The notes below the pieces were generated by a model. That model made no database searches. It worked only from the letters and a program-made list of their open reading frames with translations, and had not been told where the DNA came from. The translations under genes were made by a program, and so were the position numbers. From an uncultured Oscillospiraceae bacterium (GTDB taxonomy: Bacteria; Bacillota; Clostridia; Oscillospirales; Oscillospiraceae): DNA of 52,834 nt. Shown one piece after another: positions 29,062 through 52,106 of this stretch. Each line of letters opens with the position of its first letter. Position 1 is the first letter of the stretch. The stretch spans positions 1 through 52,834 of the forward strand of contig CAYPMJ010000001.1 of the NCBI GenBank assembly GCA_964411785.1, read 5' to 3'.

Positions 29062-29068
29062 ATGTATG

Positions 29069-32000
29069 CTATTCACCCAGGTATCTTGAAATTATCTCCG
29101 CCATCTCCGCCCTTGCGGCGATGCACTCCGGCATAAGGCGTCCATCGCCGTAGCCCACAACGAGTCCGGTTCTCACTCCCCAGGCCATGGCGTCAACGGC
29201 GTATTCTGAGATTCCGGAGGAGTCCGTGAAGTCCTCAAGCGCGGCCCTGTCCGCAGTGACATCCTCGCCGCAGGACATGGCATAGTGCCAGAGTGCGGCT
29301 ATCAGGTCCTCCCTTGTGATGCACTCGTCCGGGCCGAAGGTCCCGTCGTCCCGAACGGCGATGCAGCCGCTCTCCACTGCCCAGCCGGCGGCCTTTCCGT
29401 ACCACGCGCCGGCGTCCACGTCGTCAAGCTCCGGATCTGTCTGAACTTCCGGAGTCCCTGCAAGGCGGTAGAGAACTGTGGCGGCCTGGGCGCGGGTAAC
29501 CGGCAAATCAGGGGCAAACCGATCCTCGCTTACCCCGTTTGTCAGTCCCTCCCTCACGAGGGCTGCCACGGCGTCATAATACCAATCCTCGGGGGAAACA
29601 TCCTCAAAAAGCTGCTGCTTATCGGGCTCAACAGAGCCTGTCCAGATGATAAGGTCATCCACGTGGTAGCTGGTAAACCTGGCGTTCTCCGCAGAGAAGC
29701 ACAGCTCGTCGATGGTGGAATAATCGACCTTGTTTTCAAAGCCCTCCAGAAGCTTTTCGCCGTTAATGTACACGTCGGTGGTGTCCGGCCCGCCGACGTC
29801 TATTGTCGTGACCAGAGTCAGAGTGTTCCACTCGGTGATGTCGTAGTCGCCGGGCAGCGGCGTGTAGCTGCTGCCGGAGGTGTTGTAGCTGAAATATGTG
29901 TTGTCAGAGCGGATACAGAAGGACTCCCTTGCTGTGGTGGTGATGCCGCCGGTGCCAAAGGCGATTCTGAATCCCCTCCTGCAGTCCTCCACCTCCTGGC
30001 CGTTCACGTCGGGGTCAACCTTGAATCTGAACTGGATGGTGAGCGTGCCGCCGGTGGGATCGAATTTCAGGGTGGCCTTGGGCTGTCCGGCGCTGTTGGC
30101 GTCCACCACGTTCATGCTTCCATTCTCCATGGTGACGGATGTGTTCTGGACGTTGGCCGACGACATTGTCCACTCCGGGCCGAAGACACCGCTCTCAAAG
30201 TCGTTGCTGTAAATGACTGTCCCGGCCTCAACCGCCTTTGTGACGCTGATCTCCGCCACGGCATATGCCTCCGGATTGTCAAGGCTGGTCACCTGCACTC
30301 TCGCGGTCCCCACGGCAAGGCCGGTGACATTGCCGTCCTCACTTACTAAGACTGCGTCCCCACCCGACAGGACAGTGTATTTAAGTCCCTTCTCGGTGGC
30401 GGAATCCGGCGCAGCCGATGCATCGAGCGTGCTTTGTTCGCCTACAGTGAGACTTATTCTGTCGGCTCCCAGGGACACGCTCTCAACCCGAACCATGTCG
30501 GCTGCCTCCTTCACGGTGACGGTCTTCTCCGCGTATACTGAGCTGTCAAGGGCGCTCTCAACGCGAATTGTGGCCGTGCCGGCCCTGACTGCCGTGACAA
30601 ATCCGTCCCTTGTAACTGCAACGGCGCTGCCGCTGACGGAAAAGCTCACCTCATTGTTGCTTGTCACCGGATCTGCTGTCACCTCTGACTGGGCGCTGTC
30701 CTGGACTCCCATGACGGATGGAAGGCCTGAGAGAGTGAGCGCTGCGGGCACGACGGCGTTTCCTCCCTCAGGGGGGTTTGCGCCTGTGAAAATTTTCACA
30801 TCGTCGATACTGTATGTCAGCACGTCGGCGGAGCCCGTCTGGATGTTGAGCTGATTTACATAATCTATCGAATTTCTGTTGGCCAGTCCCAGGCCGACGG
30901 CATACCCGTTAATGTACACGTCGGTGGTGTTGGCTCTGGACGTGCCGTCATTCGGAGTTACCACGAACACAATCTCCGCCCACTCGCCGAAATCGAAGAT
31001 CGCCTTATCTGCGTTCATGGTGGGCTTGGAATAGGAGCTCGTCAGCCCGTAGGTGAGCGCTGTGAAATTCGGGTAGGAACCGCTGGCTGTATTTCTGATT
31101 CTGAAAAGCTCCGTATCATTGGTGTACCAGCTGTCGGAGCCGGATGCGACGATATAGAGATACCCGGGGTCGTTTTTTGCGGAATGGGTTCCCAGCTCGT
31201 CTATTCTGATGCGGAAGGAGATGGTGGTGGTCTGGTACTGGGCCGGGAATACGATGGCGAGCTTTGCAGGGGATGCGCCGGTGTCTCTGAGCTCAACTGC
31301 CACGTTTCCGTCCGGGTCGGCGACCAGGGATGTAGTCGCGTCGGCGGCGGATTCGGCATAGACCGTCACCTCGCCGCTGCTGAGAGATCCGATCCCGGCT
31401 CCCGGATCTGTCCCGAAATCCGTCTCAAAAAGCGCCTCCACCGGCGCGTCCGGCATGTCAGCCACAGTGACGGTACAGACCGCTGACGCCCCCGGATTGG
31501 AAGCGCTGACCGCTCTGACGGTGGCTGTCCCCACGGCAAGGGCGGTGACATTGCCGTATCTGTCCACCACCGCACACTCATCGCCCTCTGTCACGCTCCA
31601 GCTGACAGAGGTGTCTGTGGCCTTGACTGGAACCATGGCCGCCTGAAGGGTCGCTTTTTCACCGGGTCTTAGCGTCAGGCTGTCTGCGGAGAGCTCAAGT
31701 CCCTCCACAGGGATTTCGGTGACCTCGTCCGTGTGGGTGATCTTCCCCGAGTACACAAGCACATCGGCGTACTCATCCATGTTGTAGTTTTTGGAGTCCT
31801 GGAGGTAATTGCCCAGCTTGAAGTAGTAGAGCGTCTCCTTCCAGCCGGGGTCACCGGCGACGAAGTCGTAGGAATATGTCTCCTCGCGCACCTCCCCACC
31901 GGGGTCCGTGGTACCGATGGTCACGAAGGCGCGTCCGTCCACCACCTGGATCTCCGTGGAAAATTTCTGTCCCAGTGCGACATCCGGGAACGTGAACCGT

Positions 32001-32614
32001 CTGTCCGCTGAGGACGCCGAGGTGGTCTCCTTGAGCTCCACCACGATGTTTCCTGTCCCGGCTGTGAAGTCGTAGTTGTACGACACCTTCACCAGCGGGT
32101 TGGCGTTGCTGCCGTCCTTCTCGATGCCGTGGATCTGAGAGGTGATGACCTTTCCGGTGGGCGATACGTGGGTCACGCTCTCGACGGCTGTGAGGGTGTG
32201 TGTCCCCTCCCACCCCCAGTTGACGGTGGTGTGAGAGCCGTCAATGAGCTCCCGCAGCTCCGTGCGGGTGTAGGATGTGTTGGCCGTCTTCGCCCCGTCC
32301 ACGGTGCAGTGAAAGACGATGACTTCCTCGCCGTTTTCGTCAGTGCTGGCGTAGAAGTACTGATCCTCATACCCGGCTGCAAGCTCCTCCGGCATGACCT
32401 CCATCACTGATGTGAGCTTGTCGGGGTCCCACTCGGGCAACTGGATCTTCCAGCCGTCCGCTGCAAAATCCAATATCCCCGTATCGGCGGGAGTCCTGCT
32501 CCCCTTCTTAATCGTCCCGTCCCCGACCCCTCCGGAGGCCGCAGCTATCGCCGCAGAGCCCGAGGCCAACGCCAGGGTGAGTGCGGAGGCAAGAATGCGC
32601 TTCCATATATTCAT
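29069..32614 (-). CDS. Cell-surface multi-modular polysaccharide lyase: PL7 (alginate_lyase2-like) + Big_2 x3 + LamG-like x2 + SLH x3
   Basis: The signal peptide is MNIWKRILASALTLALASGSAAIAAA. I place the start at 32614, downstream of an AGGAG SD site. PL7 hallmarks are present: WKIQLP, RTELRE, QIH and YYFKLGNYLQ. Big_2-like modules include TLQAAMVPVKATDTSVSWSV...GTATVRAV. Two concanavalin-like modules carry TTDVYING. The C-terminal SLH repeats include FEDVSPEDWYYDAVAALVREGLTNG. Confidence 0.82.
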   Translation of the reverse strand: MNIWKRILASALTLALASGSAAIAAASGGVGDGTIKKGSRTPADTGILDFAADGWKIQLPEWDPDKLTSVMEVMPEELAAGYEDQYFYASTDENGEEVIVFHCTVDGAKTANTSYTRTELRELIDGSHTTVNWGWEGTHTLTAVESVTHVSPTGKVITSQIHGIEKDGSNANPLVKVSYNYDFTAGTGNIVVELKETTSASSADRRFTFPDVALGQKFSTEIQVVDGRAFVTIGTTDPGGEVREETYSYDFVAGDPGWKETLYYFKLGNYLQDSKNYNMDEYADVLVYSGKITHTDEVTEIPVEGLELSADSLTLRPGEKATLQAAMVPVKATDTSVSWSVTEGDECAVVDRYGNVTALAVGTATVRAVSASNPGASAVCTVTVADMPDAPVEALFETDFGTDPGAGIGSLSSGEVTVYAESAADATTSLVADPDGNVAVELRDTGASPAKLAIVFPAQYQTTTISFRIRIDELGTHSAKNDPGYLYIVASGSDSWYTNDTELFRIRNTASGSYPNFTALTYGLTSSYSKPTMNADKAIFDFGEWAEIVFVVTPNDGTSRANTTDVYINGYAVGLGLANRNSIDYVNQLNIQTGSADVLTYSIDDVKIFTGANPPEGGNAVVPAALTLSGLPSVMGVQDSAQSEVTADPVTSNNEVSFSVSGSAVAVTRDGFVTAVRAGTATIRVESALDSSVYAEKTVTVKEAADMVRVESVSLGADRISLTVGEQSTLDASAAPDSATEKGLKYTVLSGGDAVLVSEDGNVTGLAVGTARVQVTSLDNPEAYAVAEISVTKAVEAGTVIYSNDFESGVFGPEWTMSSANVQNTSVTMENGSMNVVDANSAGQPKATLKFDPTGGTLTIQFRFKVDPDVNGQEVEDCRRGFRIAFGTGGITTTARESFCIRSDNTYFSYNTSGSSYTPLPGDYDITEWNTLTLVTTIDVGGPDTTDVYINGEKLLEGFENKVDYSTIDELCFSAENARFTSYHVDDLIIWTGSVEPDKQQLFEDVSPEDWYYDAVAALVREGLTNGVSEDRFAPDLPVTRAQAATVLYRLAGTPEVQTDPELDDVDAGAWYGKAAGWAVESGCIAVRDDGTFGPDECITREDLIAALWHYAMSCGEDVTADRAALEDFTDSSGISEYAVDAMAWGVRTGLVVGYGDGRLMPECIAARAEMAEIISRYLGE

Positions 32615-32660
32615 CTTCTTTTTTCTCCTCATCGTTTTTAACTCGAATTCAATTTAAACC

Positions 32661-33939: not shown

Positions 33940-34698
33940 TTAAATGAACGCCTGGCCGCCGTTTACCTGAATGACCTCGCCGGTGAGGAAGGAGGACTTC
34001 TCCGAGGCGAGGAAGCCTATGACGGATGCGACCTCCTCGGGCTGTCCCAGGCGGCCCAGGACGATGTCCTTCGCCCAGGACTCCAGAACCTCGCGCGGTG
34101 TAGCCGCATGGAAGAGCGTGTCGATTGTACCTGGGGACACTGCGTTTACGCGGATGCCGTACTCCGCCAGATCCTTGGCCAGAGCGCGGGTGATGCCCTC
34201 GACGGCCCCCTTGGCCGCGGCGTAGATTCCGGCTCCTCTGCCTGCGCCGGAGGTAACGGCAATGGAGCTGAAGTTTATGATAGACGGGCATTTCCCTTTC
34301 TTAAGGAGCGGGATCGCCGCGCGGCTGGCAAAGAAGACGCTGTCAAAGTTAAGAGCCATGACGCTGCGCATGAAGCTGGTCTCCATGCCCTCAAAGCGCT
34401 GGCGCCCGCCAAGGCCGCCGACGTTGTTCACGAGGACATCGATGGAGTCGTATTTCTCCGCCAGCTTCTCAAAGACGGCGTTGACCTCCTCCTCCTTCGT
34501 GGAATCCGCAAAATAGAACTCCGCTCTGACTCCCTTCTCCTCAAGCTCCTTAACTGCCCTGTCGGAATCCTCCTTTGAAACACCCGTGAGGATGATATCA
34601 TATCCGCCAAGCCCAAGCTCAACGGCTGTGGCAAGTCCGATGCCTCTTGTTCCCCCCGTGATGACTGCTCGCATATTTCTTTCTCCCTTCAAAGTCAT
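33940..34698 (-). CDS. SDR-family oxidoreductase (KduD/DEH-reductase-like by context)
   Basis: It carries TGGTRGIG, NNVG and a catalytic S...YAAAKGA. Its start forms an ATGA overlap with the upstream stop; ATG 34674 is the alternative start. Confidence 0.9.
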   Translation of the reverse strand: MTLKGERNMRAVITGGTRGIGLATAVELGLGGYDIILTGVSKEDSDRAVKELEEKGVRAEFYFADSTKEEEVNAVFEKLAEKYDSIDVLVNNVGGLGGRQRFEGMETSFMRSVMALNFDSVFFASRAAIPLLKKGKCPSIINFSSIAVTSGAGRGAGIYAAAKGAVEGITRALAKDLAEYGIRVNAVSPGTIDTLFHAATPREVLESWAKDIVLGRLGQPEEVASVIGFLASEKSSFLTGEVIQVNGGQAFI

Positions 34699-36587
34699 AT
34701 GATTTCAATATTGAGACGGAATCTGTTTACCTGTCCGCGGGAGCGGACCATAAGTGTTGTCCTGGTGCGGTCTACCGGGTTATCCATGGTCCTCATGATG
34801 AAGGCCTCCTGCCCCTCCTCCAGCGTCAGCGTGAGGTGAAGGCTGAGATCCCCGGTCTCAAGCTGGAGGTTGACGCATGCCGTCTCCTTGAACCGGCGCA
34901 CATCCCTCATATGCTGATATCCGTTTTCGGAAAAGCCGGTTCCCGCAGGCTCCGTCTCCAGCCCGCAGTGAACGGCGATCCCGGGTTCCAGGTGGAAAAA
35001 CCAGTCGTAAACGCCATCCTCCCCGCATGCGGAAAACTCATCTGTGTATTCCGTGGGGGTTATCCCGATGGTCCGCGTGTAATCGACGCCCTCGTAGACG
35101 TTCCTGGCGACAGCTCTGACTGCGTTCTCACAGAAGGACAGACACTCCCCGGGGCTCACTGATGTTATGTCCTCCCCGTTCCGGCAGACGGTGTTGTGGC
35201 AGACGGTTCTTCTGTGCCACTCGTTGCACAGTCTTGAACGGTAGCCCGCATTTGAGAGATCCCTTGAGACGCGCATTTTGCGGCACATGAGCTCCACCCC
35301 CATGATGTCAGGGTGGTGGTGAGAGCTGCCGTTCAGGCCGTATTTCAGAAACACGTTCCAGCTCCCGTTCCGGAGCACGGCGAAGTTTGACGCGGGGAAG
35401 AGTCTTGATTCACGGCGTATCTCATGATAATCGTCGTAATCAAAGTCGATGTTGAAGAGGAGCCTCTCCATACAGACCTCGTTAAAGCAGTAGTACGGCT
35501 CGGAGAGCGGCAGTATGGTTCTTGGTGCGGGGTTGGCCTCGATGAGCTTTACGAGGTTCCCCACAGGCGAATTCTCCCCGAAGAAGCGGGCAGCCGTGTG
35601 ATAGACGTAGCCGTAGGTCTTCAGGTTGATGTCCGGCCAGCCGTCGTTGGGGTTGGGGAGATACTGGTTGTCAAAGGCGTAATCGTAGGCGTTGAGAAAC
35701 ATGTTCTCAAAGATCCCGGTGCTCTCCTCGCCCATGTCGTGACCGTAAATCCCGGCAAACAGGAAGAGATATGAGACGCCCTCCAGCAGGAAGAAATTGT
35801 AGTGTATGCTCCCCTCGTACCAGAAGCAGTCCCCTGTCACACCGCGCTTAAGCTGCTCATGGATGTTGAGCGGACCTGTGAACGCAAAGTCCCGCATCTC
35901 CCGGTCGTCCAGCGCCAGGCCCATGACGCCTATTGCCGCGATCTCCCAGGCGCTGATGTTGTGTATCTGCGTCACCTGCGGGCGCAGAAGCTCATAAATT
36001 GGGCAAAAGAGCTTCCTATGGAGCTTTTCAAGCCAGGAGGGATCCAGCTCCTCCCGGAGTATCTCAATGGTGTCAATGAACCTTATGGCGATAATCGCCT
36101 CATTCAGATTCTGAGGCATCACTCTCCCGCAGCCCCACTTCATCTCTCCTATGGAATCAAAGATCTGATCCTCCTTGTTGTGGAGAGGAAACAGGTGGTA
36201 GTTCTCCGCGTACCAGTCTATAACGTTCACCGCGTAATCGTAATAGCTTCTCTCCCCAGTCACCCGGTAGACCATGGCTGAAACCATAGTCATGGTAACT
36301 GCTCTGTTTCGATAGAAGGTGGTCCAGACTCTGTCCAGGTACTCGTCCTCAAACTCCTTCCCGCAGACCGTGCATCTGTGTCGATGCGGGGAATTGAGAT
36401 CGAATATGAGGCGTCCGCCGTCCTCGTTGCAGAAGTAGGCGTGCCCCCAGCCGCTGAGCTTATCGGGGGAATCGGAGAAGCCGGGCATGAACTCGTCCAC
36501 ATCGGCGCGCATCCTGTCCAGAACCCGCGCGTTTTCGGGCTTGCGCATGTACTCGCAGAAGTGCTCATTTACATATTTCAATGTCAC
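34695..36587 (-). CDS. Heparinase II/III-like family protein (cytoplasmic; probable oligo-uronide lyase)
   Basis: It has no signal peptide. NGSSHHHPDIMGVEL is typical of the heparinase II/III C-terminal domain. The start is uncertain: GTG 36587 gives a GTGA overlap, TTG 36581 lies 7 nt after GGGAGG, and the ORF-track GTG 36632 has no SD site. Confidence 0.72.
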   Translation of the reverse strand: MTLKYVNEHFCEYMRKPENARVLDRMRADVDEFMPGFSDSPDKLSGWGHAYFCNEDGGRLIFDLNSPHRHRCTVCGKEFEDEYLDRVWTTFYRNRAVTMTMVSAMVYRVTGERSYYDYAVNVIDWYAENYHLFPLHNKEDQIFDSIGEMKWGCGRVMPQNLNEAIIAIRFIDTIEILREELDPSWLEKLHRKLFCPIYELLRPQVTQIHNISAWEIAAIGVMGLALDDREMRDFAFTGPLNIHEQLKRGVTGDCFWYEGSIHYNFFLLEGVSYLFLFAGIYGHDMGEESTGIFENMFLNAYDYAFDNQYLPNPNDGWPDINLKTYGYVYHTAARFFGENSPVGNLVKLIEANPAPRTILPLSEPYYCFNEVCMERLLFNIDFDYDDYHEIRRESRLFPASNFAVLRNGSWNVFLKYGLNGSSHHHPDIMGVELMCRKMRVSRDLSNAGYRSRLCNEWHRRTVCHNTVCRNGEDITSVSPGECLSFCENAVRAVARNVYEGVDYTRTIGITPTEYTDEFSACGEDGVYDWFFHLEPGIAVHCGLETEPAGTGFSENGYQHMRDVRRFKETACVNLQLETGDLSLHLTLTLEEGQEAFIMRTMDNPVDRTRTTLMVRSRGQVNRFRLNIEII

Positions 36588-38554
36588 ACCTCCCAGCTTC
36601 TGCCGCCCGCTGTCACCTGAACTGCAAGACACCCGTCATCGTTTACGCCGTCGGTGATACGGGCCTTGTACTCACAGCCGTCCAGCGTGACCGTAAGTGT
36701 GCAGTCCTTAAATTCGACCCTGGCCCCGCTTCCCTCAAAGGTGAAGCACTCAAAAAACACCTGCTCGCACGTCGGGCTCTCAGATGCCAGGGAGAGCGTC
36801 TTCATATCAGACCTCGTCAGCTTATCCGGCTCCTGCGGCGTCATATTGCTGATTACGGTCTGTTCATACTGCGTGGCCTTAAGGGGAAGGTCGGAGAACG
36901 TCCTGCACCGCACATTCCCGGATGCCATGCGGTAGAGCGCACCGTCACCGGTGAGCTCAGCTGCTGTGTCGGTATTTCTGATGACCTCAAAGATGTGGGG
37001 CTTATCGCTGCGCATGACATCCACGAAGACCCAGAATTTAAGCCCGTCCGTTATGAGCAGGCGGCTCACCTCCCGCATCTCAAGTTCCCAGGGGTATATC
37101 CCCGACGTCTCTCCCCGGTAGAGCACCACTCCACCATCGGTGACCAGCCTTGTGACTCTCCCGGTGTACGCTGCGGGGTCGAAGCTGTCTCCCCTCGTCT
37201 CCTCCCTTAGTCTGGCGGAGGCCATGTAGATATCGGAGACGCCCTGGCAGTCTGTGTATTGCCCGTCCGCCAGCAGGACGCTGTGATGGGTCGGAAGGAT
37301 CGACCTGTTGTAGCCGTCCTCACAGATCAGGTAGTCGCTGCCCTCGGTGAATATGTATGAGAGGTTGTCCGGGTGGTGGTGGGACAGTGAGAGGGGCCTG
37401 ATATGCTCGCTCCTCGCAAGCTCCCAGCCAAGCTTCCACTGCTTTTTCCCGCCTGGGGCGCCGCATTTTATGGTCAGGACCCTGGCCTCGGGACTCCAGC
37501 CGTCCCGCACGGTCAAAAGTCCCAGATCCCCGAAGTACCTGGTGAGCGGCAGATCCGTAAAGTCACGCTCCTCCACCGTCGGGTCGTACCAGAGCAGCTC
37601 AAACATGGCCTCCGGAAGAATGCCGGGACGCACCCCGCTGCACCTGGCCTCCTCCTCCAGGAATCTGTCAACCACCATATTGCCCAGCTTCTGTGCGTAA
37701 CCGTTCCGGTACTCAGCGGCGATCTTGAAATAGACACAGGCAGGGTGCCCGCTGTGGCGGTCGTGGCAGTCGCCGAAATTAAGCTGCATCCGCAGATCCG
37801 CACAGGACTGGTACAGCCTGTACCAGAAGGTGTTCTTCAGATAGTCCGACTTCCGGAACCAGTCGATGCCCTCCCGCTCCTTAAGAAGGTGGGCGTATAC
37901 AAAGAGCCACATGCCCCCGTAACGCCAATAGCAGACACCCTCATAATTGGAGCCGTCGTCGGCCAGAAGCGAATAGACTCTCTCAAAATTCTCTTTTGCC
38001 TCCTCTATGTAACTGTTCGCCTCATCGCACTCCCCCAGAAGTGCATAGCCGGCTGCGGCGATGCCCGTCATATTGATCCAGTTGTGGTTCTGCCAGAAGT
38101 CTGTAGACCAGCCTCGGCCGTATGTCTCGCGCCGATAGTCATAGAGTATCCTGGCATGATGTCTGATCTTCTCCCGGATGCGAGCCCTCTCCTCAGCGTC
38201 GAGCTCAGGCTTGAGCCAGTCGTATCCCAGGGACAGCCCGAACAGGATCCAGGAGGCGGACAGATCCACATTGACCATGTGGTTGTAGCCCCACTCGTCC
38301 CAGCATAGCACAGTGTCCATGAATCGGCGGGCCTCATTGAGATACTTCTCCTCTCCTGAGAGAAGATGCGCCAATGCCAGATTGGCAATTCCGACCCCCA
38401 TGTATGTGGTGCTCTCCTTTGGGGGCTGTGCTGAAAGCTGGAATTCTGAGCACCTGTCCGCCTCGTTTAAGAGGCGTCTTAACTGTCTTTTCCTGTCAGT
38501 ATATAGACCGCGCATGTACTCCGTGAGGTCACCTATAAACAAATATCTTTTCAT
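36584..38554 (-). CDS. Alginate-lyase-like N-domain + heparinase II/III-like protein (cytoplasmic)
   Basis: It has no signal peptide. The alpha/alpha-toroid-like N-terminal half contains WQNHNWINMTGIAAAGYALLGE, and LSLSHHHPDNLSYIF lies in the C-terminal beta domain. Its start forms an ATGA overlap with the upstream stop. Confidence 0.78.
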   Translation of the reverse strand: MKRYLFIGDLTEYMRGLYTDRKRQLRRLLNEADRCSEFQLSAQPPKESTTYMGVGIANLALAHLLSGEEKYLNEARRFMDTVLCWDEWGYNHMVNVDLSASWILFGLSLGYDWLKPELDAEERARIREKIRHHARILYDYRRETYGRGWSTDFWQNHNWINMTGIAAAGYALLGECDEANSYIEEAKENFERVYSLLADDGSNYEGVCYWRYGGMWLFVYAHLLKEREGIDWFRKSDYLKNTFWYRLYQSCADLRMQLNFGDCHDRHSGHPACVYFKIAAEYRNGYAQKLGNMVVDRFLEEEARCSGVRPGILPEAMFELLWYDPTVEERDFTDLPLTRYFGDLGLLTVRDGWSPEARVLTIKCGAPGGKKQWKLGWELARSEHIRPLSLSHHHPDNLSYIFTEGSDYLICEDGYNRSILPTHHSVLLADGQYTDCQGVSDIYMASARLREETRGDSFDPAAYTGRVTRLVTDGGVVLYRGETSGIYPWELEMREVSRLLITDGLKFWVFVDVMRSDKPHIFEVIRNTDTAAELTGDGALYRMASGNVRCRTFSDLPLKATQYEQTVISNMTPQEPDKLTRSDMKTLSLASESPTCEQVFFECFTFEGSGARVEFKDCTLTVTLDGCEYKARITDGVNDDGCLAVQVTAGGRSWEV

Positions 38555-39093
38555 TCCGCTCTGACTCTCCCCTTTTCAGGTATGATCCTTCTCAGACTCT
38601 CTGCAAGTCCGGCGAGCAGCCAGTGAAAGAAGACGAACAGCGCTGCAAAGCCGAACGGCTCACCCGGAATGACCACAGTATCCTCAGGAAGCTCAGCGAG
38701 CCTGACAAGTATCATGTTGATATTCTGATATGTGAGATACACCAGGAACACGATGAGGAGCGACCTTGCAACCTCCGCGAGGTTTTCCATGGCCCTTTTC
38801 CACCCCGTGGTGCCCTTGTAGCGTCTGCTCAGGTTGACGCCTTTCCGCCTCACGTCAAAAGCGCCGTAGGCGACAGGTTCATAGATGACAACTGTGGCAA
38901 GTCCCGTGCCAATCCCCAGCAGGAGAATGAGATCCAGCGGGGATTCAGACATGCCGACCTCAAGTCCCATGGCAACGAGGTAGTAGCACATCCCGACGAT
39001 CCACCAGCGCAGTATTCCGGCCTTCACACTATCTGAGATGCGTTTTTTCGGAGCATCCGGCTTATCAGTCAGTTTTTTCACGTTTATCACCAC
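38551..39093 (-). CDS. Small polytopic membrane protein, unknown family (180 aa)
   Basis: It has about four TM segments, a basic N-terminus and a basic central loop (RRKGVNLSRRYKGTTGWKR). The start is GTG. Its stop overlaps the next gene's start as ATGA. No SD site is visible, so the exact start is uncertain. Confidence 0.55.
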   Translation of the reverse strand: MVINVKKLTDKPDAPKKRISDSVKAGILRWWIVGMCYYLVAMGLEVGMSESPLDLILLLGIGTGLATVVIYEPVAYGAFDVRRKGVNLSRRYKGTTGWKRAMENLAEVARSLLIVFLVYLTYQNINMILVRLAELPEDTVVIPGEPFGFAALFVFFHWLLAGLAESLRRIIPEKGRVRAE

Positions 39094-39502
39094 GTTTGGA
39101 AAGTGTCATGTCGATAACAAGCAGCAGCGATGCCGCCAGAAAAGCGGCAAGCATTGCGACGCTCAGGACAACTGCCCTCATCACCACCGCCGTGTCAAGC
39201 TGCTGCTGCGTCCGGCATGCGGAGAGGTAGATCCTTATGAGCAGGACCGCAGGTACAGCCGTCACGAGAGTGAAGACCACGGTCATGATTCCGGGCAGGT
39301 AATGCTCGGGCTTGATCTGCGTGCACTCGAAAAGCAGCACCAGCCCCATCAGGACAAAAGCAAACATATAAAACCCGCATATCTCGTTTTCAAGGAGAAG
39401 CAGCGCACGAGTATGAACGTTGGTGAAAATGAGATGGGCGATGGCCGCAGCTGCGATAAGCACTCGGGCGGCATTTGTAAGTGGGGAATTGGTCTTTGTC
39501 AA
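39065..39502 (-). CDS. Small polytopic membrane protein, unknown family (145 aa)
   Basis: It has four TM segments. The TTG start lies 7 nt after a GGGGAGGTGA SD site and overlaps the ATPase stop as TTGA. Confidence 0.62.
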   Translation of the reverse strand: MTKTNSPLTNAARVLIAAAAIAHLIFTNVHTRALLLLENEICGFYMFAFVLMGLVLLFECTQIKPEHYLPGIMTVVFTLVTAVPAVLLIRIYLSACRTQQQLDTAVVMRAVVLSVAMLAAFLAASLLLVIDMTLSKRGDKREKTD

Positions 39503-40602
39503 CTCTTTTTCACCTCCCCGTGGACTATGAGCTCCTCCGAGGCGCTGTCGAAGAAATAGAAATGCCTCATGAGCGGTCTTATATAGACTGTCCTTCCCAG
39601 GTCCGGCATGCCCTTAGAGCAGCTGATCTCGCATACGAGGCTCTGTCTGCCAAGGCGCAGATGGAGGATAAAGGAGCTCCCCAGGTACTCAGAGGCCTCA
39701 AGCTCCGCTGCGAATACGTCCTCCCCCGGCCCCTCGGCAATCTCAAACATATTGGGTCTCAGGCCCATGGTCAGCTCCGCGCCCTCATATTTAAGGAGCT
39801 TCTCATTTGCCGGCGCGGGAACGGTCACTGTTTTCCCGTCAAAGGTGAAGACACCGCCTTCATATTTTCCAGGAATAAAATTCATCTGCGGAATTCCGAT
39901 GAAGCCGGCGACAAACATGTTGGCAGGTTCGAAGTAAACCTCAGACGGCGTGCCGGCCTGCTGAATGACCCCCTCCTTCATGACAATGATCCTGTCCGCC
40001 ATGCTCATGGCCTCTGTCTGGTCATGGGTGACGTATACGGTAGTGACGCCCAGGGATCTCTGCAGCTTCACAAGCTCCAGCCTGGTCGAGCTGCGCAGCT
40101 TCGCGTCCAGGTTTGAAAGGGGTTCATCCATCAGAAAGGCCTTCGGCGTCCTGACGATGGCCCTGCCCAGGGCCGCCCGCTGCTTCTGCCCTCCGGAGAG
40201 CTGCCCGGGAAGGCGGTTCAGGTACGGCACCATATCCACCGTCCTGCCGGCCTCCATTACGCTGTCATAAATCTCGGTCTCGTCCTCATGGCGTATACGC
40301 AGGCTCATGCCTATGTTGTCATAGATGGACATGTTGGCGTAGAGAGCATAGTCCTGAAAAACCATTGCTATGTTCCTGTCAACAGGCGGCTTTGAGTTTA
40401 CAACCTCGCCGTCGATGCTCAGCTCCCCGCTGGTGATGAGCTCAAGTCCGGCCAGCATGCGCAGCACCGTGGACTTCCCGCATCCCGATGGCCCCACAAG
40501 GACGACAAACTCCCCGTCCCTCGCCTCAAAAGTGAAATCCGTCACAGCGTGGACGCCGCCGGTGTAGATCTTGTTGACTCTGTCAAATCTGATGCTTCCC
40601 AT
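39499..40602 (-). CDS. Sugar ABC transporter ATP-binding protein (MsmX/MalK/UgpC type)
   Basis: It has Walker A GPSGCGKST, the Q-loop, signature LSGGQKQR, Walker B FLMDEPLSNLD and a C-terminal TOBE-like regulatory domain. A GAGGAGG SD site is present. Confidence 0.95.
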   Translation of the reverse strand: MGSIRFDRVNKIYTGGVHAVTDFTFEARDGEFVVLVGPSGCGKSTVLRMLAGLELITSGELSIDGEVVNSKPPVDRNIAMVFQDYALYANMSIYDNIGMSLRIRHEDETEIYDSVMEAGRTVDMVPYLNRLPGQLSGGQKQRAALGRAIVRTPKAFLMDEPLSNLDAKLRSSTRLELVKLQRSLGVTTVYVTHDQTEAMSMADRIIVMKEGVIQQAGTPSEVYFEPANMFVAGFIGIPQMNFIPGKYEGGVFTFDGKTVTVPAPANEKLLKYEGAELTMGLRPNMFEIAEGPGEDVFAAELEASEYLGSSFILHLRLGRQSLVCEISCSKGMPDLGRTVYIRPLMRHFYFFDSASEELIVHGEVKKS

Positions 40603-40612
40603 GGCCGCCTCC

Positions 40613-41059
40613 TCACACGCTGCTCCTGCCGAGCCTGTTTAAAAGTGCTGTCCGCTTTCCGGTTCTCACAAGTCCCAGTGCGCCGGCCGCCGTGAGCAGG
40701 ATGACCGTCGCTATATTGAGTATCAGTATCCTTGTCTCCCTGCCTGTGGGCTTGATCACAAACGGTATCAGCACCAGCTGCCTGAAGAGAACATACGCCG
40801 CAGCAGCGATGGTTACCCAGGACCAGAAGGTGCTGTAGACATTCACCTTCACGGCACATGTAAAGAGGAGAAACAGCGCGAGTATGTTCACCATCACGGT
40901 GGCGCCCATGATCCAGCTTATCCTCATCCGATCCAGAACGCTCACCACGTAGACGAACTCCAGCGCAGTCGCCAGAAGGATGAGTGCGTAGCAGGACTTG
41001 TTCTTCTTATAAAGCGACACATATACTTTCTTGTCGAAATCGTTTTCCGCGCCATTCAC
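40613..41059 (-). CDS. Small polytopic membrane protein, unknown family (148 aa)
   Basis: It has four TM segments. The GTG start overlaps the upstream stop as GTGA. TM2 (ALFLLFTCAVKV) resembles TM2 of the 145-aa protein (GLVLLFECTQIK). Confidence 0.58.
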   Translation of the reverse strand: MNGAENDFDKKVYVSLYKKNKSCYALILLATALEFVYVVSVLDRMRISWIMGATVMVNILALFLLFTCAVKVNVYSTFWSWVTIAAAAYVLFRQLVLIPFVIKPTGRETRILILNIATVILLTAAGALGLVRTGKRTALLNRLGRSSV

Positions 41060-41598
41060 TCCGCTTCACCCCGCTGTCTCAGTTTTACAAATGTGATGTG
41101 GCTGACGATGAGGCTCACAAGGTACAGCACGCAGACGGCAATCTGCGCCGCGTACAGGCCTATCCCGATGTAGAATGTTCCGAACCTCAAGGTGTAGTCC
41201 TCAATTCCCTCAAGATAGAGCGAGGAGATGTCCATGTTCCTGTAGAAGGACATAATGGCGGGCAGATTCTGCAGCGCATATACTGAGCCGTAGGCGCAGA
41301 CGCACAGCACTGCAGCCATGAGAATAAGGGCAAACCTGTCCGGAACCTTTGTAAGCGTCTCCAGCATGAACGCGAACAGCACGCCCACAACCCCCACTAT
41401 TGCCCATATGAGGATCCCTTTGTTGAACGGCTGAAGGATGCTGTCGTGGAAAAGAGCTACCTGGCTGTTGCCCTGAAGTCTGAGTCCGAAGAGATTCTCA
41501 TAGTCCGTCATGAAGGCGAGAGCATAGACGAAAATGACGACCACAACAATGATATAGAGGATCGCCGCGGCCTTCTGCGCCCTGAAGATTTTTCTCAT
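41056..41598 (-). CDS. Small polytopic membrane protein, unknown family (180 aa)
   Basis: It has about four TM segments. A very strong AAGGAGGTGA SD site lies 4 nt from the ATG. Confidence 0.65.
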   Translation of the reverse strand: MRKIFRAQKAAAILYIIVVVVIFVYALAFMTDYENLFGLRLQGNSQVALFHDSILQPFNKGILIWAIVGVVGVLFAFMLETLTKVPDRFALILMAAVLCVCAYGSVYALQNLPAIMSFYRNMDISSLYLEGIEDYTLRFGTFYIGIGLYAAQIAVCVLYLVSLIVSHITFVKLRQRGEAE

Positions 41599-41660: not shown

Positions 41661-43823
41661 TCAGTTGTCTGCTGTCATGACGGCGTAGGCCGCCTGATAC
41701 ACAGATACGTAGGTGTCAAGGCCCTTGTCCTCGAAGTACTTAAGGTACTCCCCGTATGTCTCCGGGATATCAACGCCCGCCGGAGCGTTCCCCTTTGTCT
41801 TGTAGCGGATGATGTTGAAAAGATACTCTGTGGTGTCGTCCATCTCGATGGATGTCTCGGAGCTCAGCTGCTCCTGCTGACGGTCGGTCATGGAGAACGC
41901 GGAGGGTATCATCTTGTAGTAGTTCGGGTTATCGCCCTCCAGGCCCAGGTCGCCCTCGTAGTTGGCGAAGCCGGTGGTGGAGTTGTTCAGAAGCTCCCAA
42001 CCTGCGAAGCCGCGATCTGAGGTGTACTGATACTCAAAGCCTATGTTCTTCTGATAGCCTATGGGGATCTGAGAGCCGATCCAGTCGCGCAGGAATGTAG
42101 AGAGGTCGCCGTTGGCAACGTCCAGGGTGTCATAGACCCACTCGTTGTACTTCGGATATTCGATGCCGTCCGGGCCCTCGTAGGTCTCACCATCCACCAG
42201 AATCTGGTCAATGCCGTAGTTCTGGAGCTTGTCTCCCTCCTCGGAGAAGAAGTAGTCCAGAAGTGCGCAGGAGCGATAGAGCTCCGCATCCGTGGCATTG
42301 CCCTTCACCGAGATCGCCCAGCCGTCACTCTTGATGGCGCGGCCATTGTCGATATAATACTGCCACACGCCGTTTACCTCGGCCACGGGCGGGAGCATCA
42401 CGGTTGTGTCCCCATTGAGGCTGTCCGTGGTGGATGAGGCGATCCAGTCGATGGTCATCCAGCCGTACGCGGGAGAGTCGCTGTCATCCGTACCCCACAG
42501 CTTGCTGCGGAAGTTGGTCTTGTTAGTCAGATCATAGGTGTCCGCGTAGATGAGGCCCTCGGCCTCCATGTCGGAGAGATAGTTAAGAACGTCGTATATG
42601 CCCTCGGTTGAGTAGGTGTACTGAACTGTCCCGTTTTCATCAATGTACCAGCGGGAGCTGTAGGAGTCGGCTCCGAAGGCCTTAACCCCGCCAAAATAGG
42701 TGCCAAAGCGCAGAAGATCCTCGCGGTAGCTGGACTGGCGGACAAAGAATGGCCATACAACATCCGCCGACCCGTCGGTGAGATAGCTCGGATTGGCCTT
42801 GATGCAGCGCATCAGTGCGATGAGCTCGTCAATGTCATATGCCGCCTTCTCGCCAAGATACAGCTCTGATGGAGTGCTGTAGTCGTAGTTATCGTTGATG
42901 TACTGGATAAGCGCCTCGGTCAGTGTTTTCCCGTTCTTCACGGTCAGTGCGTTCTGGATCTCGATGATATTCTGGTCGGTCTTCTTGGTGACGGTGACGC
43001 CCTCCTTCGGGATAACGGAGCCTCCGTTGCTGCCGGTACGGGCGTTGTCGCCGACAAGGTACCCGCCGTAGTAGGTGGTGAAGCTGGCGGTATCGTAGTT
43101 TGCCCCGCTGACGTCCAGAAGCTCGGTGACCCATGTCTCCCTAGCTACAAAGGCCCGGGCGTAGGTGTTTATCTCAGCGATGTACGGTACATAGTAGATG
43201 CCCCCGTCGTAGGCCGTAATTGCGCTGCGTATGGAGGGGTTCTCCTCCAGGTACTTGGCGAAGTTGGGCATATAGCCCTCGTTCATCATATCCACCAGGT
43301 TTACGAACATTCCTCTTGAGCCATAGTTCATGAAGTCGGTGGCGATGGAGTTTCCTCCAAAGATATTTGCGCCGGCAAATGCGTCGGTGGATGCGGTCTG
43401 GATCATCTCAGAGGCCTTCTGGTCCTGGGTGGTCACGTCCTCAATGTCAATGTTGAGGGCGCTCTCTACCTGCGTCCACACGGGCTTGAGCATTCCGGCA
43501 GTCACCACGGTTCCGTCAGGCAGCGTCATGGGGGATTCTTTGTAATAGGTAAGGACCCTGTCCTTGTTGCCGGTGGTGAAGTTGATCTTCAGGGTGACGT
43601 GTTCGGTAAGGTCCGTCTTGTCCTCGACCCCGGTATTGATTGGCGAATTGTCATCTGCATTGGAAGCTCCGTCGTCGACGTTGCCGGAGTCACCGTTTCC
43701 GGAGCCGCCGTCACCTGACTGGCTGCCCTGGGCCTCATCAACAATGGTGCCTCCGCATCCGGCAAGTGCCCCCATAAGGAGCGCTGCCACGAGAATTAGA
43801 CTGATGATCCCTGTTTTTTTCAT
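41661..43823 (-). CDS. Large (720-aa) extracellular solute-binding lipoprotein, LplA-like
   Basis: The signal peptide and lipobox read MKKTGIISLILVAALLMGALAG-C, followed by a Gly/Ser/Asp-rich linker. A GGGAGGAAG SD site is present. The gene sits next to LplB/LplC-type permeases. Confidence 0.85.
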   Translation of the reverse strand: MKKTGIISLILVAALLMGALAGCGGTIVDEAQGSQSGDGGSGNGDSGNVDDGASNADDNSPINTGVEDKTDLTEHVTLKINFTTGNKDRVLTYYKESPMTLPDGTVVTAGMLKPVWTQVESALNIDIEDVTTQDQKASEMIQTASTDAFAGANIFGGNSIATDFMNYGSRGMFVNLVDMMNEGYMPNFAKYLEENPSIRSAITAYDGGIYYVPYIAEINTYARAFVARETWVTELLDVSGANYDTASFTTYYGGYLVGDNARTGSNGGSVIPKEGVTVTKKTDQNIIEIQNALTVKNGKTLTEALIQYINDNYDYSTPSELYLGEKAAYDIDELIALMRCIKANPSYLTDGSADVVWPFFVRQSSYREDLLRFGTYFGGVKAFGADSYSSRWYIDENGTVQYTYSTEGIYDVLNYLSDMEAEGLIYADTYDLTNKTNFRSKLWGTDDSDSPAYGWMTIDWIASSTTDSLNGDTTVMLPPVAEVNGVWQYYIDNGRAIKSDGWAISVKGNATDAELYRSCALLDYFFSEEGDKLQNYGIDQILVDGETYEGPDGIEYPKYNEWVYDTLDVANGDLSTFLRDWIGSQIPIGYQKNIGFEYQYTSDRGFAGWELLNNSTTGFANYEGDLGLEGDNPNYYKMIPSAFSMTDRQQEQLSSETSIEMDDTTEYLFNIIRYKTKGNAPAGVDIPETYGEYLKYFEDKGLDTYVSVYQAAYAVMTADN

Positions 43824-43895: not shown

Positions 43896-44759
43896 TCAGC
43901 CCTTCACTCCGCCCATATTCACGCCCTTTGCAAAGTACTTCTGTATGTATGGATAAATAATGAGCACGGGGATGATTGAGCAGATGATAATGGCGTATGC
44001 CAGGCTGTCCGCCGCATATGGCAGGACAACGGGTGACTCCTCATAGAGCTTCTGATAGCTCTCAATCTGCTGCCTCAGAAACACCTGCAGCGGCTGCTGA
44101 TAGGTGTCGCTGAGAAGCATTCTTGACCAGTAGTAGGCGTTCCAGCGGCTGACAGCATAGAAGAGCGTCACTGTGGCAATGCTGGCCTTGGACATGGGGA
44201 TATAGACGCGGTAGAACACCTGGAACTCGCTGGCCCCGTCCATGACAGCCGCCTCCTCGATCTCCTTCGGGATGCTGCTGAAGTAGTTGCGAAGGAGGAT
44301 GATGTTGTATGCCTGCACGCCGAAGGCGACGACGAGGCCCCAGCGGTTGTCCACATTCATGCTCTTGTAGTTGAGGTATTGCGGGATCATGCCGGCGGAG
44401 AACCACATGGTGAAGACCAGCAGGAAATTCCACTGGCGTCGGAACAGGAGCTTCCTCTTCTGCAGTGCGTAGGCTCCGGTGAGGGAGATGAGCATGCTCC
44501 AGGCCGTACCCATGACGGTGTAGAACAGCGTGTTGGCGTAGGCAATCCAGAAGCCCTTGCTGTGGAGAACAATGTCGTAGGCCTGGAAATTGACATCCTT
44601 CGGCAGGAGGGTTATCTCGCCGCTCTCGTAAGCCAGCTTTCCGCTGATGGACACGCTGAATGCGTAAATCACGGGATACAGTGTGATTGCCGCAAAGACA
44701 ATGACAAGTATATACGCAAATACCTTGAAGGCTTTCTCGCTTCTGTTGAGCAGTTCCAT
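43896..44759 (-). CDS. Carbohydrate ABC transporter permease (LplC-like)
   Basis: The protein is polytopic, with the EAA loop IEEAAVMDGASEFQVFYRVYIPM. An AAGGGAGGGAA SD site is present. Confidence 0.9.
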   Translation of the reverse strand: MELLNRSEKAFKVFAYILVIVFAAITLYPVIYAFSVSISGKLAYESGEITLLPKDVNFQAYDIVLHSKGFWIAYANTLFYTVMGTAWSMLISLTGAYALQKRKLLFRRQWNFLLVFTMWFSAGMIPQYLNYKSMNVDNRWGLVVAFGVQAYNIILLRNYFSSIPKEIEEAAVMDGASEFQVFYRVYIPMSKASIATVTLFYAVSRWNAYYWSRMLLSDTYQQPLQVFLRQQIESYQKLYEESPVVLPYAADSLAYAIIICSIIPVLIIYPYIQKYFAKGVNMGGVKG

Positions 44760-44774
44760 ACGTATTCCCTCCCT

Positions 44775-45719
44775 TCACCAGAGTGACGTGTCTGAGATGT
44801 TGCGGCTTATGGTGTTTGCGCCTATGACCAGTGCAAAGCCTATGAGCGAGTTGAAGAGACTCACCGACGCCCCCACGCCGTAATTTGCGTTGACGATTCC
44901 GATGCGCTGCTCAAAGGTGGACAGCACGTCCGCCGTGGTGTAAATGTTGGCGTTGTAGAGAAGCAGCACCCTCTCATAGCCCACCGAGAGCATATTGCCT
45001 ATCCTCATGATTATCATGATGATGAGCGTCGGCGCAATGCACGGGAGCGTCACATACCTGAGCTCCTGGAACTTGTTGGCTCCGTCCACCTTCATGGCCT
45101 CGTACAGCGTCGGCGCGATGCCCATGATGGCCGCGAAGTAGACAATGGAGTTGTAACCGCTCTCCTTCCATATCCCCACAGCTATATACAGCGGCCTGAA
45201 GTAGTTGGCCTTGGAGAGCAGAGAGACTCCGCTCTCAATAAGTCCGAGGCGCTGGAAGATGGCGGCTATTACGCCGGTGGAGCTTGCGCCGCTGTAGACC
45301 AGCATGATGGTGATACTGGTTATGGTGACCTCGGAGAGGAAGTGCGGCAGATAGATGGCCGTCTGGGTAAACTTCCTGACAAAGCTGTTGCCAATCTCCG
45401 AGAAGAGAAGCGCCAGAATTATAGGTATCGGGAAACCGAACACGAGCCCGTAGGCATTGATTACGAAGGTATTCCTGAAGGCCTGCCAGAAGCTCTCCTT
45501 ATAGACGCCCGTCACCAGGTTGAAGAAGTTCGCCACCCCCCTGAATTCGCTGTTCCAGGTTCCAAGCAGGGGATCAAACCGCTTGAACGCGATCAGCAGT
45601 CCGCCCATCGGCTTATAGGCCCATAGGGCCAGCCAGATGATCAGCGGCGCTAAGAGGACGTAGAGCCGCCACTCGCTGAGAATGCCGCGCACCAGCTTCC
45701 CCGCTCTGGGGGTTCGCAT
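44775..45719 (-). CDS. Sugar ABC transporter permease (LplB-like)
   Basis: WRLYVLLAPLIIWLALWAYKPMGGLLIAFKRF is the typical LplB-type N-terminus, and YEAMKVDGANKFQELRYVTLP is the EAA loop. I place the start at ATG 45719, preceded by a GGAAGGAA SD site. Confidence 0.88.
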   Translation of the reverse strand: MRTPRAGKLVRGILSEWRLYVLLAPLIIWLALWAYKPMGGLLIAFKRFDPLLGTWNSEFRGVANFFNLVTGVYKESFWQAFRNTFVINAYGLVFGFPIPIILALLFSEIGNSFVRKFTQTAIYLPHFLSEVTITSITIMLVYSGASSTGVIAAIFQRLGLIESGVSLLSKANYFRPLYIAVGIWKESGYNSIVYFAAIMGIAPTLYEAMKVDGANKFQELRYVTLPCIAPTLIIMIIMRIGNMLSVGYERVLLLYNANIYTTADVLSTFEQRIGIVNANYGVGASVSLFNSLIGFALVIGANTISRNISDTSLW

Positions 45720-45820
45720 TTCTATTCCTTCCGTATTGATTTCAACCACCTCCCAAACAGCATATTTTTTACACCTTCCATCCTTATCATCTCCTCAAAA
45801 TTATCTGCTTATTTTTCACG

Positions 45821-45900: not shown

Positions 45901-45929
45901 ATTATACAATAATAGTCATAACTTGTCAA
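45901..45929 (-). promoter_or_regulatory. Consensus sigma-A promoter of the 12-gene uronate operon
   Basis: The minus strand reads TTGACA, 17 nt, TATAAT. The -35 element is at 45924-45929 and the -10 at 45901-45906. Confidence 0.6.
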
Positions 45930-46170: not shown

Positions 46171-46200
46171 AAAAAATGAGAGCGGCCTTTTTAAGGCCGC
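46171..46200 (-). terminator. Intrinsic terminator about 215 nt downstream of the kinase gene
   Basis: A GCGGCCTT / AAGGCCGC stem is followed on the minus strand by CTCATTTTTT. Confidence 0.55.
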
Positions 46201-46413
46201 CCTTATGGCATCGGTTTTTCATATTGTGTATTCAACAGCTCTGTCTTTGAACAGTCAGCCGCGGCGCAGTCGCGATACGGTGGGGATAAAAGAGGCGTGA
46301 AAGCGCAGATATCCCGTTAATTTCAGGTTTAAAGCAGCGCATTCCGGCGAAAAAGTCCACCGGCCGCCGATAAGCATCTGTCCTAAGCTTCCCCCATCTT
46401 GCCGTTTAAGGTC

Positions 46414-49392: not shown

Positions 49393-49420
49393 AGCGCGTC
49401 CCCTCTCCTCTTTGGCCGGG

Positions 49421-50452: not shown

Positions 50453-50513
50453 ATTATCCCCCCAGATTCTGTAAATGGCAAGCGGGAGAGCCGAATGTCT
50501 CTCCCGCAGGTTA

Positions 50514-52079: not shown

Positions 52080-52106
52080 GCCGAACCTCCCTGTCCAATC
52101 GGCCTC

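Follow-up and report, generated by a model that had tools for sequence, protein, structure and literature searches.

Four new families of predicted small membrane proteins flank a distinct ATPase subtype in polyuronate importer operons of Clostridia and spirochaetes

Type I sugar importers of the ATP-binding cassette (ABC) class are treated as a closed list of parts, comprising one solute-binding protein (SBP), two permeases and two copies of an ATPase. Three described systems come close to the locus considered here: the alginate importer AlgM1-AlgM2-AlgS2/AlgQ1,Q2 of Sphingomonas sp. A1 (PDB 4TQU); the MsmX-dependent CUT1 pectin importers of Bacillus subtilis (YtcQP-YteP, YesOPQ, LplABC), which likewise combine LplB/LplC-type permeases with an MsmX-type ATPase and deal with acidic plant polysaccharides; and TogMNAB of Dickeya (Erwinia chrysanthemi), also a CUT1 importer, for oligogalacturonides. 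To our knowledge, TogMNAB consists of four components only, without small membrane subunits (we made no sequence comparison with it). Here we have analysed a stretch of 52,834 nucleotides from an uncultured Oscillospiraceae bacterium (assembly GCA_964411785.1, contig CAYPMJ010000001.1, positions 1 to 52,834; hereafter the window), in which an importer operon of this kind holds four additional genes for small membrane proteins, named A to D in this study, arranged around the ATPase gene in the order A-B-ATPase-C-D. Judged from sequence, the operon represents a subgroup of type I ABC importers distinguished by a dedicated subtype of the nucleotide-binding domain (NBD) and by new conserved membrane components, four or five in number. 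We propose, with a probability of about 0.5, that A-D are dedicated auxiliary membrane subunits of a polyuronate importer and form an enlarged complex with the ATPase and both permeases.

All four core components of the Sphingomonas importer have homologues in the window, all encoded on the minus strand. The first permease (perm1, 44775-45749; AlgM1/LplB-type, Pfam BPD_transp_1) matches AlgM1 (4TQU_M) with E=1.6e-73 and has a coupling loop of the form EAM...G...LP, and the second (perm2, 43896-44759; AlgM2/LplC-type, BPD_transp_1) matches AlgM2 (4TQU_N) with E=1e-85 and has a canonical EAA loop; the next-best permeases score only about 1e-11. The ATPase (39499-40602, 367 aa) matches AlgS with E=7e-85, and the SBP (41661-43823, 720 aa) matches AlgQ1/AlgQ2 with E=1e-28, in this case only over residues ~113-235 and 326-615. 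The substrate class (alginate oligomers) appears to be the same, and lyases and a reductase are encoded alongside in both systems. In contrast to Sphingomonas, the SBP is here a lipoprotein with about 200 additional residues, the ATPase has specific substitutions described below, and the hosts are Clostridia and spirochaetes. The window SBP has a lipoprotein signal and a low-complexity Gly/Ser/Asp/Asn linker and gives no Pfam match at E<=1; the SBPs of all loci that carry the A-B-ATPase-C-D cassette measure ~650-720 aa (647-720 in alginate-type loci). With its AlgM1, AlgM2 and AlgQ homologues and the PL15-, PL17- and PL7-like lyases encoded downstream, the operon is by homology an alginate (polyuronate) utilisation operon with a complete AlgM1M2S/AlgQ-like importer. 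The surrounding genes are thus those of an AlgM1M2SS/AlgQ-type system, but its composition is not limited to two permeases, one ATPase and SBP, since four extra conserved membrane-protein genes lie inside the operon. A first-pass annotation made from the letters of the window alone had already regarded A-D as surplus to a canonical importer encoded upstream, and the homologues found here bear this out. In Bacillus the ATPase is encoded elsewhere and shared, whereas here it is embedded among the four small genes.

The operon spans 33.9-45.9 kb as a single minus-strand unit in the order perm1-perm2-SBP-A-B-ATPase-C-D-DUF4962/DSE-like-heparinase/Alginate_lyase-SDR, the last gene encoding a short-chain dehydrogenase/reductase (SDR). 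Its start is marked by the combination of a TTGACA-17-TATAAT promoter upstream of perm1 (45901-45929, minus strand; 12/12 positions of the sigma-70 consensus) and, just upstream of this promoter, the strong terminator of the preceding gene (46179-46203, minus strand; 11-bp stem). This is the sole consensus promoter for the operon, in which stops and starts overlap or are closely spaced; in its interior, terminator-like sites are no commoner than in shuffled sequence and none makes a convincing internal terminator. Gene A (41056-41598, 180 aa) starts with ATG behind the Shine-Dalgarno (SD) sequence AAGGAGGTG, and B (40613-41059, 148 aa), with a basic N-terminal tail, starts with GTG. Beyond the ATPase gene follow C (39065-39502, 145 aa; start TTG, SD GGAGGTG, motif ALLLLENEICGF) and D (38551-39093; 180 aa as the longest open reading frame (ORF), probably 176). 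This arrangement and these sizes, as well as the presence of a single MsmX-like ATPase in the window, had been given by the first-pass annotation and are confirmed from the ORF list and the sequence. Its description of the genes as chained by 4-nt overlaps or short gaps holds for A/B (GTGA), for B and the ATPase (a 10-nt gap containing GGAGG), for ATPase/C (TTGA) and for the stop of D with the start of the DUF4962/DSE-like gene (ATGA), but not for C/D, where the overlap is 29 nt with the longest D ORF and 17 nt with a GTG start at 39081. The latter, which gives the 176-aa protein, is the likelier start of D, because GGTGA lies five bases upstream of it and D homologues measure 164-185 aa.

The cassette is kept as a unit far beyond the window. 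Alginate-type loci were fetched through A or D and their gene order judged as far as each sequence reaches; they come from Clostridiaceae, Lachnospiraceae, Oscillospiraceae, Faecalibacterium and Bacillota metagenome-assembled genomes (MAGs), together with one isolate. Every alignment-confirmed locus shows the single order perm1-perm2-SBP-A-B-ATPase-C-D-DUF4962-heparinase-SDR, and in every related locus of this type each of A-D is conserved, in the same order, as a protein of 38-61% identity. Such protein-level conservation means that these ORFs are not chance; by this comparative evidence A-D are real conserved genes of new families, and the probability that they are artefacts or non-coding is negligible. 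Remote relatives of D (E of 1e-10 to 1e-27 against the D profile) sit in the same cassette in four further settings: an alginate locus of a Spirochaetales MAG; a locus with GH88, GH3, KduI and KduD; another alginate-type locus, with a 446-aa ATPase; and a pectin locus with pectinesterase, KduI, GH28 and GH88/105. Local hidden Markov models (HMMs) recognise all four small proteins at their positional equivalents in the spirochaete locus (A 1.4e-12, B 5.9e-18, C 1.6e-13, D 3e-25) and A, B and D in the pectin locus (4e-10, 3e-6 and 5e-15), where C is recognisable by position only.

A metagenome scan for the pectin-type D subfamily found 325 relatives, and 80 loci were kept. Among those that have sufficient flanking sequence, C is the gene immediately upstream of D in 56 of 56, ATPase-C-D is intact in 39 of 39, and a full string that begins with a further gene, E-perm1-perm2-SBP-A-B-ATPase-C, is present in 14 of 14; like TogMNAB, these cassettes can be linked to pectin, as they adjoin GH28, GH105/88 and KduI. 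In the loci examined we never saw the cassette apart from the permeases and SBP, nor D without C, nor D without the ATPase where the upstream sequence sufficed. The block that had been noticed in the window is therefore conserved as a unit in alginate-type, spirochaete, GH88/KduI and the 80 pectin-type metagenome loci, and both findings that could have overturned the idea, unconserved ORFs or the lack of a syntenic link to the ATPase, are clearly contradicted. We have shown that the genes keep one order in hundreds of loci, whichever of several substrates is concerned. Besides a few cultured bacteria, the carriers are metagenome sequences in the hundreds, from gut, rumen and other sources, and the module appears from these comparisons to be ancient and to follow importers of acidic (uronate) oligosaccharides, not of alginate alone.

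The further gene E encodes a fifth novel family of membrane proteins (179-195 aa, with an RWG motif) and is located immediately upstream of perm1, often overlapping its start. It occurs in most related loci, including the 14 full pectin-type ones (examples in our locus numbering are L005:1235-1789, L017:2835-3374, L019:2809-3387, L025:2419-3006, L027:2825-3382 and L028:2724-3296), and is missing from the window (upstream of 45749) and from L002, L008 and L014-L016. Pectin-type E proteins have no Pfam match at E<=1. Several candidate gene fusions within these loci were inspected and rejected. C and D share a frame in two Clostridium-like genomes (L011:8525-9469 and L012:12104-13057) but are separated by an in-frame stop; in protein P0103 (304 aa; L020/L021:793-1707, two ENA assemblies) C is joined to D after an apparent frameshift in the fourth helix of C; the apparent B-ATPase fusion P0237 comes from a frameshifted low-quality contig; and P0131, a fragment of D joined to SDR, is unusable as a fusion.

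Among 5.8 billion proteins, A has homologues in 18 clusters (44-82% identity), all of them metagenomic. Profile searches returned 149 clusters for D and 126 for B, which include proteins of the cultured Clostridium sp. MCC353 and chh4-2, Lacrimispora celerecrescens and L. brassicae, all annotated as 'hypothetical protein'. An exhaustive profile search of 1.84 billion representative proteins (clusters at 50% identity) extends D to a superfamily of 167 clusters at E<=1e-3, 91 at <=1e-10 and 29 at <=1e-30. A tblastn search with D against a plasmid collection gave no match. The 1404-aa protein P0321 matches the D profile with E=2.9e-14, but it is made of ~16 copies of a hydrophobic repeat and seems to be translated repeat DNA and not a relative.

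As the first-pass annotation had supposed, A-D fall outside recognised families. The window proteins have no Pfam match (hmmscan, E<=1) and no NCBIfam match, and no member of any A-D family reaches a Pfam or NCBIfam cut-off. The Pfam scans of homologues covered 16 A and 9 D members (E<=5), distant D relatives (E<=0.1) and pectin-type A, B, C and E (E<=1), and the matches below cut-off are scattered hydrophobic noise that differs from member to member (DUF6688, DUF202, ABC2_membrane_3). Some Bacillus-type sugar operons also hold extra membrane proteins, of the DUF624/YesL type; DUF624/YesL is not among the Pfam matches of A-D, of the A and D homologues, of the distant D relatives or of pectin-type A, B, C and E, and A-D and E are unrelated in sequence to these proteins. 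Neither do A-D match Multi_Drug_Res, the small multidrug resistance (SMR) family, whose members have ~110 aa against the 145-180 aa of A-D, nor any energy-coupling factor (ECF) family of S or T components; unlike EcfA-type ATPases, which have no MalK regulatory domain, the ATPase carries OB_MalK and TOBE_2 domains and has UgpC as its best NCBIfam. Full-text literature searches found no description of subunits resembling A-D, and none appears in a 2026 review of bacterial glycoside transporters or in a genome-wide structural survey of B. subtilis ABC systems.

Hydropathy indicates four transmembrane (TM) segments each in A, B and C and three to four in D, with all proteins predicted to be N-in/C-in by the positive-inside rule. 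The AlphaFold2 models of A and D show four long helices, in keeping with the earlier estimate of about four per protein. The same annotation had also denied the small proteins an EAA loop, and a regular-expression search finds EAA in perm2, the EAM variant in perm1 and neither in A-D, which also lack any match to the type I importer permease family PF00528 (Pfam, E<=1); this supports the view that they are not classical ABC permeases. The D model (57-sequence alignment; predicted local distance difference test (pLDDT) 84.8, predicted template-modelling score (pTM) 0.76) adds to its four TM helices a TM2-TM3 hairpin and a short helix, both placed in the cytoplasm by the positive-inside rule, while the A model (16 sequences; pLDDT 84.7, pTM 0.79) is a bundle of four helices of 31-40 residues each, exceeding the span of a bilayer. 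Both were compared with the PDB by Foldseek, with E<=0.001 and a meaningful template-modelling score as the criterion for a fold match. D has nothing significant (best E=0.68, score about 0.2) and A finds only de novo four-helix bundles and generic tetraspans (best E=0.046), so neither model matches the fold of any ABC membrane domain. Known tetraspan and small accessory subunits (TARP/claudin-like, MS4A/FcεRIβ, KdpF, AcrZ) share the idea of a four-TM bundle, but show no significant structural or sequence similarity and serve as a functional analogy only.

The family alignments of A-D contain many invariant polar and aromatic residues. Conserved to at least 85% across all locus types are Q8, T31, Q56, N59, D123 and Y135 in A, which has two conserved loops predicted outside; N58 (96%), R93 (100%), F66 and Y75 in the compact protein B; and K24, W31, G43, D54, Y122, N126, E145, P146 and F149 in D, whose motifs are RWWxxGMxYF, PxDLIF, YQxxN and GEPFGFA. 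Several of these residues are polar and lie within or at the ends of TM helices. D has, in addition, a basic loop of ~30 residues between TM2 and TM3 (79-110), cytoplasmic by the positive-inside rule, the sequence of which is not conserved between D subfamilies. The conserved polar or charged residues that lie inside TM helices or border them (R93 and N58 in B; D54 and N126 in D) would also suit a role that is independent of the ATPase, for instance a channel, a secondary carrier or a sensor, with the genes interleaved with the ATPase for co-expression only. Such proteins might compensate cations or protons, take up monomer (DEH or uronate) or signal to an IclR-type regulator, and it is in line with this that all the substrates are Ca2+-binding polyanions and that the only resemblance found is that of a generic four-helix bundle, tetraspan auxiliary subunits included. 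However, some link to the ATPase seems needed to account for the strict order A-B-ATPase-C-D and the overlapping or closely spaced stops and starts in lineages that are far apart, and A-D match no known channel, carrier or SMR family. We therefore consider this explanation improbable.

From the TM2 segments of B and C, which both have an LF-rich stretch followed by K, the first-pass annotation had suspected paralogy and a pseudo-symmetric arrangement around the ATPase. The similar lengths (180/180 and 148/145) would agree with two paralogous pairs, A with D and B with C, but the comparisons speak against both ideas. BLASTP finds no alignment between B and C, and between A and D it yields E=0.016 over 46 residues; hhalign between the family alignments gives a probability of 0.1-4.7% for all six pairs, and its best B/C alignment lies in TM4, away from the cited motif. 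The symmetry is confined to gene lengths and is local, since D measures 164-185 aa among close relatives but reaches 283 aa in distant members of the superfamily. Two paralogous pairs are thus very improbable, and A, B, C and D are best explained as four unrelated families of predicted four-helix inner-membrane proteins.

The ATPase within the cassette is an MsmX/UgpC/MalK-type NBD, with Walker A, Q-loop, LSGGQ, Walker B and H-loop motifs, a C-terminal MalK-type regulatory domain and the domains ABC_tran, OB_MalK and TOBE_2. It matches MsmX (6YIR) with E=6e-94, and its best NCBIfam, the UgpC subfamily, scores 406.8 bits, below the cut-off of 432. Around residues ~84-100 the window protein reads YALYANM where MsmX and SugC have YALYPHM, and GMSL where they have AFGL or AFPL; MalK presumably belongs to the same YALYPHM and AFGL/AFPL type. 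The Pro of YALYP, beside the Q-loop, is replaced by Gly or Ala in cassette ATPases (Ala in the window, Gly in most), and in the helical subdomain, where the NBD makes contact with membrane subunits, they have xxSL in place of AFGL. Where the sequence downstream suffices, most pectin-type loci encode a second, canonical MsmX-like ATPase, ATP2, either directly after D (L046, L056, L067, L083, L091, L100) or after GH28-GH88 (ATP2 lies, for example, at L025:13551-14627 and L029:10607-11692). ATP2 forms its own orthologue group, with ~70-80% identity among loci and ~50% to the cassette ATPase, and retains the YALYP Pro in 25 of 25 sequences, as do the solved MsmX and SugC. Cassette ATPases of alginate and pectin type have in common 19 derived consensus residues that set them apart from ATP2; at five of the 19, ATP2 has the residue that we take to be present in E. 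coli MalK at the equivalent position. These comparisons show the cassette ATPase to be a distinct NBD subtype. In alginate-type loci there is one ATPase only within about 10 kb.

The main competitor of our proposal starts from these observations. The cassette could be a separate ATP-driven machine, in which A+B and C+D (eight TM helices on each side) form the membrane part and the cassette ATPase is the motor, while the canonical permeases are energised by ATP2 in pectin loci or by a shared MsmX encoded elsewhere in the genome. Its cargo might be counter-cations, monomer or a signal, or it might perform extramembrane mechanical work like FtsEX or MacB. The ATPase gene is always embedded among the A-D genes, a second canonical orthologue group occurs near pectin-type cassettes, and it is ATP2 that keeps the canonical residues where cassette ATPases have lost the Q-loop-adjacent Pro and have an altered helical subdomain. 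Many CUT1 operons of Firmicutes lack an ATPase gene and share MsmX, which also counts for this explanation. Mirror-tree residuals, calculated with the common signal removed for 16 non-redundant pectin-type loci, are 0.22 for A-B, 0.22 for ATPase-D, 0.18 for C-D and 0.20 for perm1-perm2; this weak residual co-variation is exploratory and only suggestive. Against a separate machine, A-D have no EAA-like coupling motif and the cytoplasmic-loop candidate of D is unconserved between subfamilies; no known ABC membrane domain is built from four separate four-TM chains and no ABC-domain fold was matched; alginate-type loci, including the window, show one ATPase nearby; and no cassette turned up at a distance from the permeases and SBP. 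On balance we regard a separate machine as unlikely, though less so than any of the other alternatives. A related and somewhat more doubtful idea is that the cassette is an unrecognised piece of ABC machinery, made of four four-TM polypeptides without EAA loops and a specialised MalK-like ATPase, which would stand beside a classical type I importer and, for instance through counter-ion transport or by gating this importer, help Gram-positive and spirochaete cells to take up polyanionic oligosaccharides (alginate, pectin).

Our preferred reading remains that of auxiliary importer subunits. In this proposal, A-B-ATPase-C-D is a fixed five-gene cassette inside an AlgM1/AlgM2/AlgQ-type (CUT1) importer operon, the substrates being oligosaccharides from acidic polyuronates, presumably alginate in the window and pectin or other unsaturated uronides elsewhere. 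A-D would be stoichiometric subunits, translated beside the ATPase and assembling with this enzyme and both canonical permeases. In A, the helices that protrude and the conserved loops outside (Q56, N59, D123, Y135) might contact the substrate or the oversized lipoprotein SBP; polar residues within the membrane (N58 and R93 of B; D54, Y122 and N126 of D) might form a polar network between subunits or handle the polyanionic substrate and its counter-ions; and the basic parts predicted to be cytoplasmic by the positive-inside rule, namely the N-terminal tail of B and loop 79-110 of D, might touch the ATPase. This reading rests on real genes in invariant synteny, orthologous across locus types and never apart from the permeases and SBP, and on an operon with one promoter, EAA loops only in perm1 and perm2, derived ATPase residues and conserved polar residues. 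That A-D belong to the importer operon is predicted from its layout, and the comparisons show that selection apparently keeps them next to the dedicated ATPase subtype wherever this importer type occurs; their physical association with the importer and their individual roles are what we infer. Of the three functions that the first-pass annotation had considered, accessory or regulatory subunits and a second set of membrane partners for the ATPase are the best supported, ahead of a separate uronate transporter.

Several observations weigh against auxiliary subunits. We know of no A-D genes for the Sphingomonas AlgM1M2SS/AlgQ2 importer, so that A-D are not intrinsically needed by this type of transporter. 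The presence of ATP2 in pectin loci fits at least equally well a cassette ATPase that serves A-D and an ATP2 that serves the permeases. Neither the ATPase nor a permease was found naturally fused to any of A-D, and the apparent cases are frameshift artefacts. The weak mirror-tree residuals pair A with B, C with D and D with the ATPase, not the small proteins with the permeases, and in pectin-type loci, where the ATPase equals the permeases in conservation, A-D evolve 3-4 times faster than the latter. The permeases of alginate-type loci are ~76-85% identical to those of the window, falling to 69-75% in the Faecalibacterium locus, which diverges most; the corresponding figures are 52-67% for the ATPase and 38-61% for A-D.

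A large and ecologically important subgroup of type I importers, those for alginate and pectin oligosaccharides in gut and rumen Clostridia and in spirochaetes, always carries four conserved membrane proteins beyond the closed list, and five in most lineages, around a dedicated ATPase that is itself somewhat unusual. Should A-D be subunits, polyanion import differs in architecture, and perhaps also in mechanism, from what the Sphingomonas and E. coli models show; a second machine, on the other hand, would represent a new type of ABC membrane module. Either way, there are four or five families to name and a metagenome marker for polyuronate utilisation loci, and the alternatives are testable in cultured carriers (L. 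celerecrescens, L. brassicae, Clostridium sp. MCC353 and chh4-2).

The enzymes of the operon follow D on the minus strand. The first is a DUF4962/DSE-like_N protein (36584-38554) with similarity to PL15 oligoalginate lyases or dermatan-sulfate epimerase, the second (34695-36632) combines Heparinase II/III-C and Alginate_lyase domains and resembles PL17 alginate lyases, and the third (33940-34698) is the SDR, a KduD/DEH-reductase-like protein the position of which is kept in related loci. Further downstream lies the gene for a secreted PL7 alginate lyase of 1187 aa (29069-32632, minus strand) with two Big_2 and three SLH domains; it is predicted to be anchored to the cell wall through the latter and presumably makes the oligomers that are imported. 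After it comes a MatE transporter (27700-29076), and locus L017 likewise has a MatE gene, after its SDR. On the plus strand, genes for a GH42 beta-galactosidase (23223-25265) and a type II/IV secretion ATPase (T2SSE, 25432-27114) sit between the alginate genes and a LacI regulator (21825-22859). Upstream of the operon, 46414-52832 is occupied by a signalling cluster that encodes a Ser/Thr kinase of 992 aa, in which a zinc-ribbon-like N-terminus is combined with repeats at the C-terminus; a membrane protein of 388 aa that on inspection of its sequence is a putative PP2C-like phosphatase; a secreted trypsin-like protein of 521 aa whose C-terminal domain is FHA-like; and a repeat protein rich in Q and Y, likewise with an FHA-like end.

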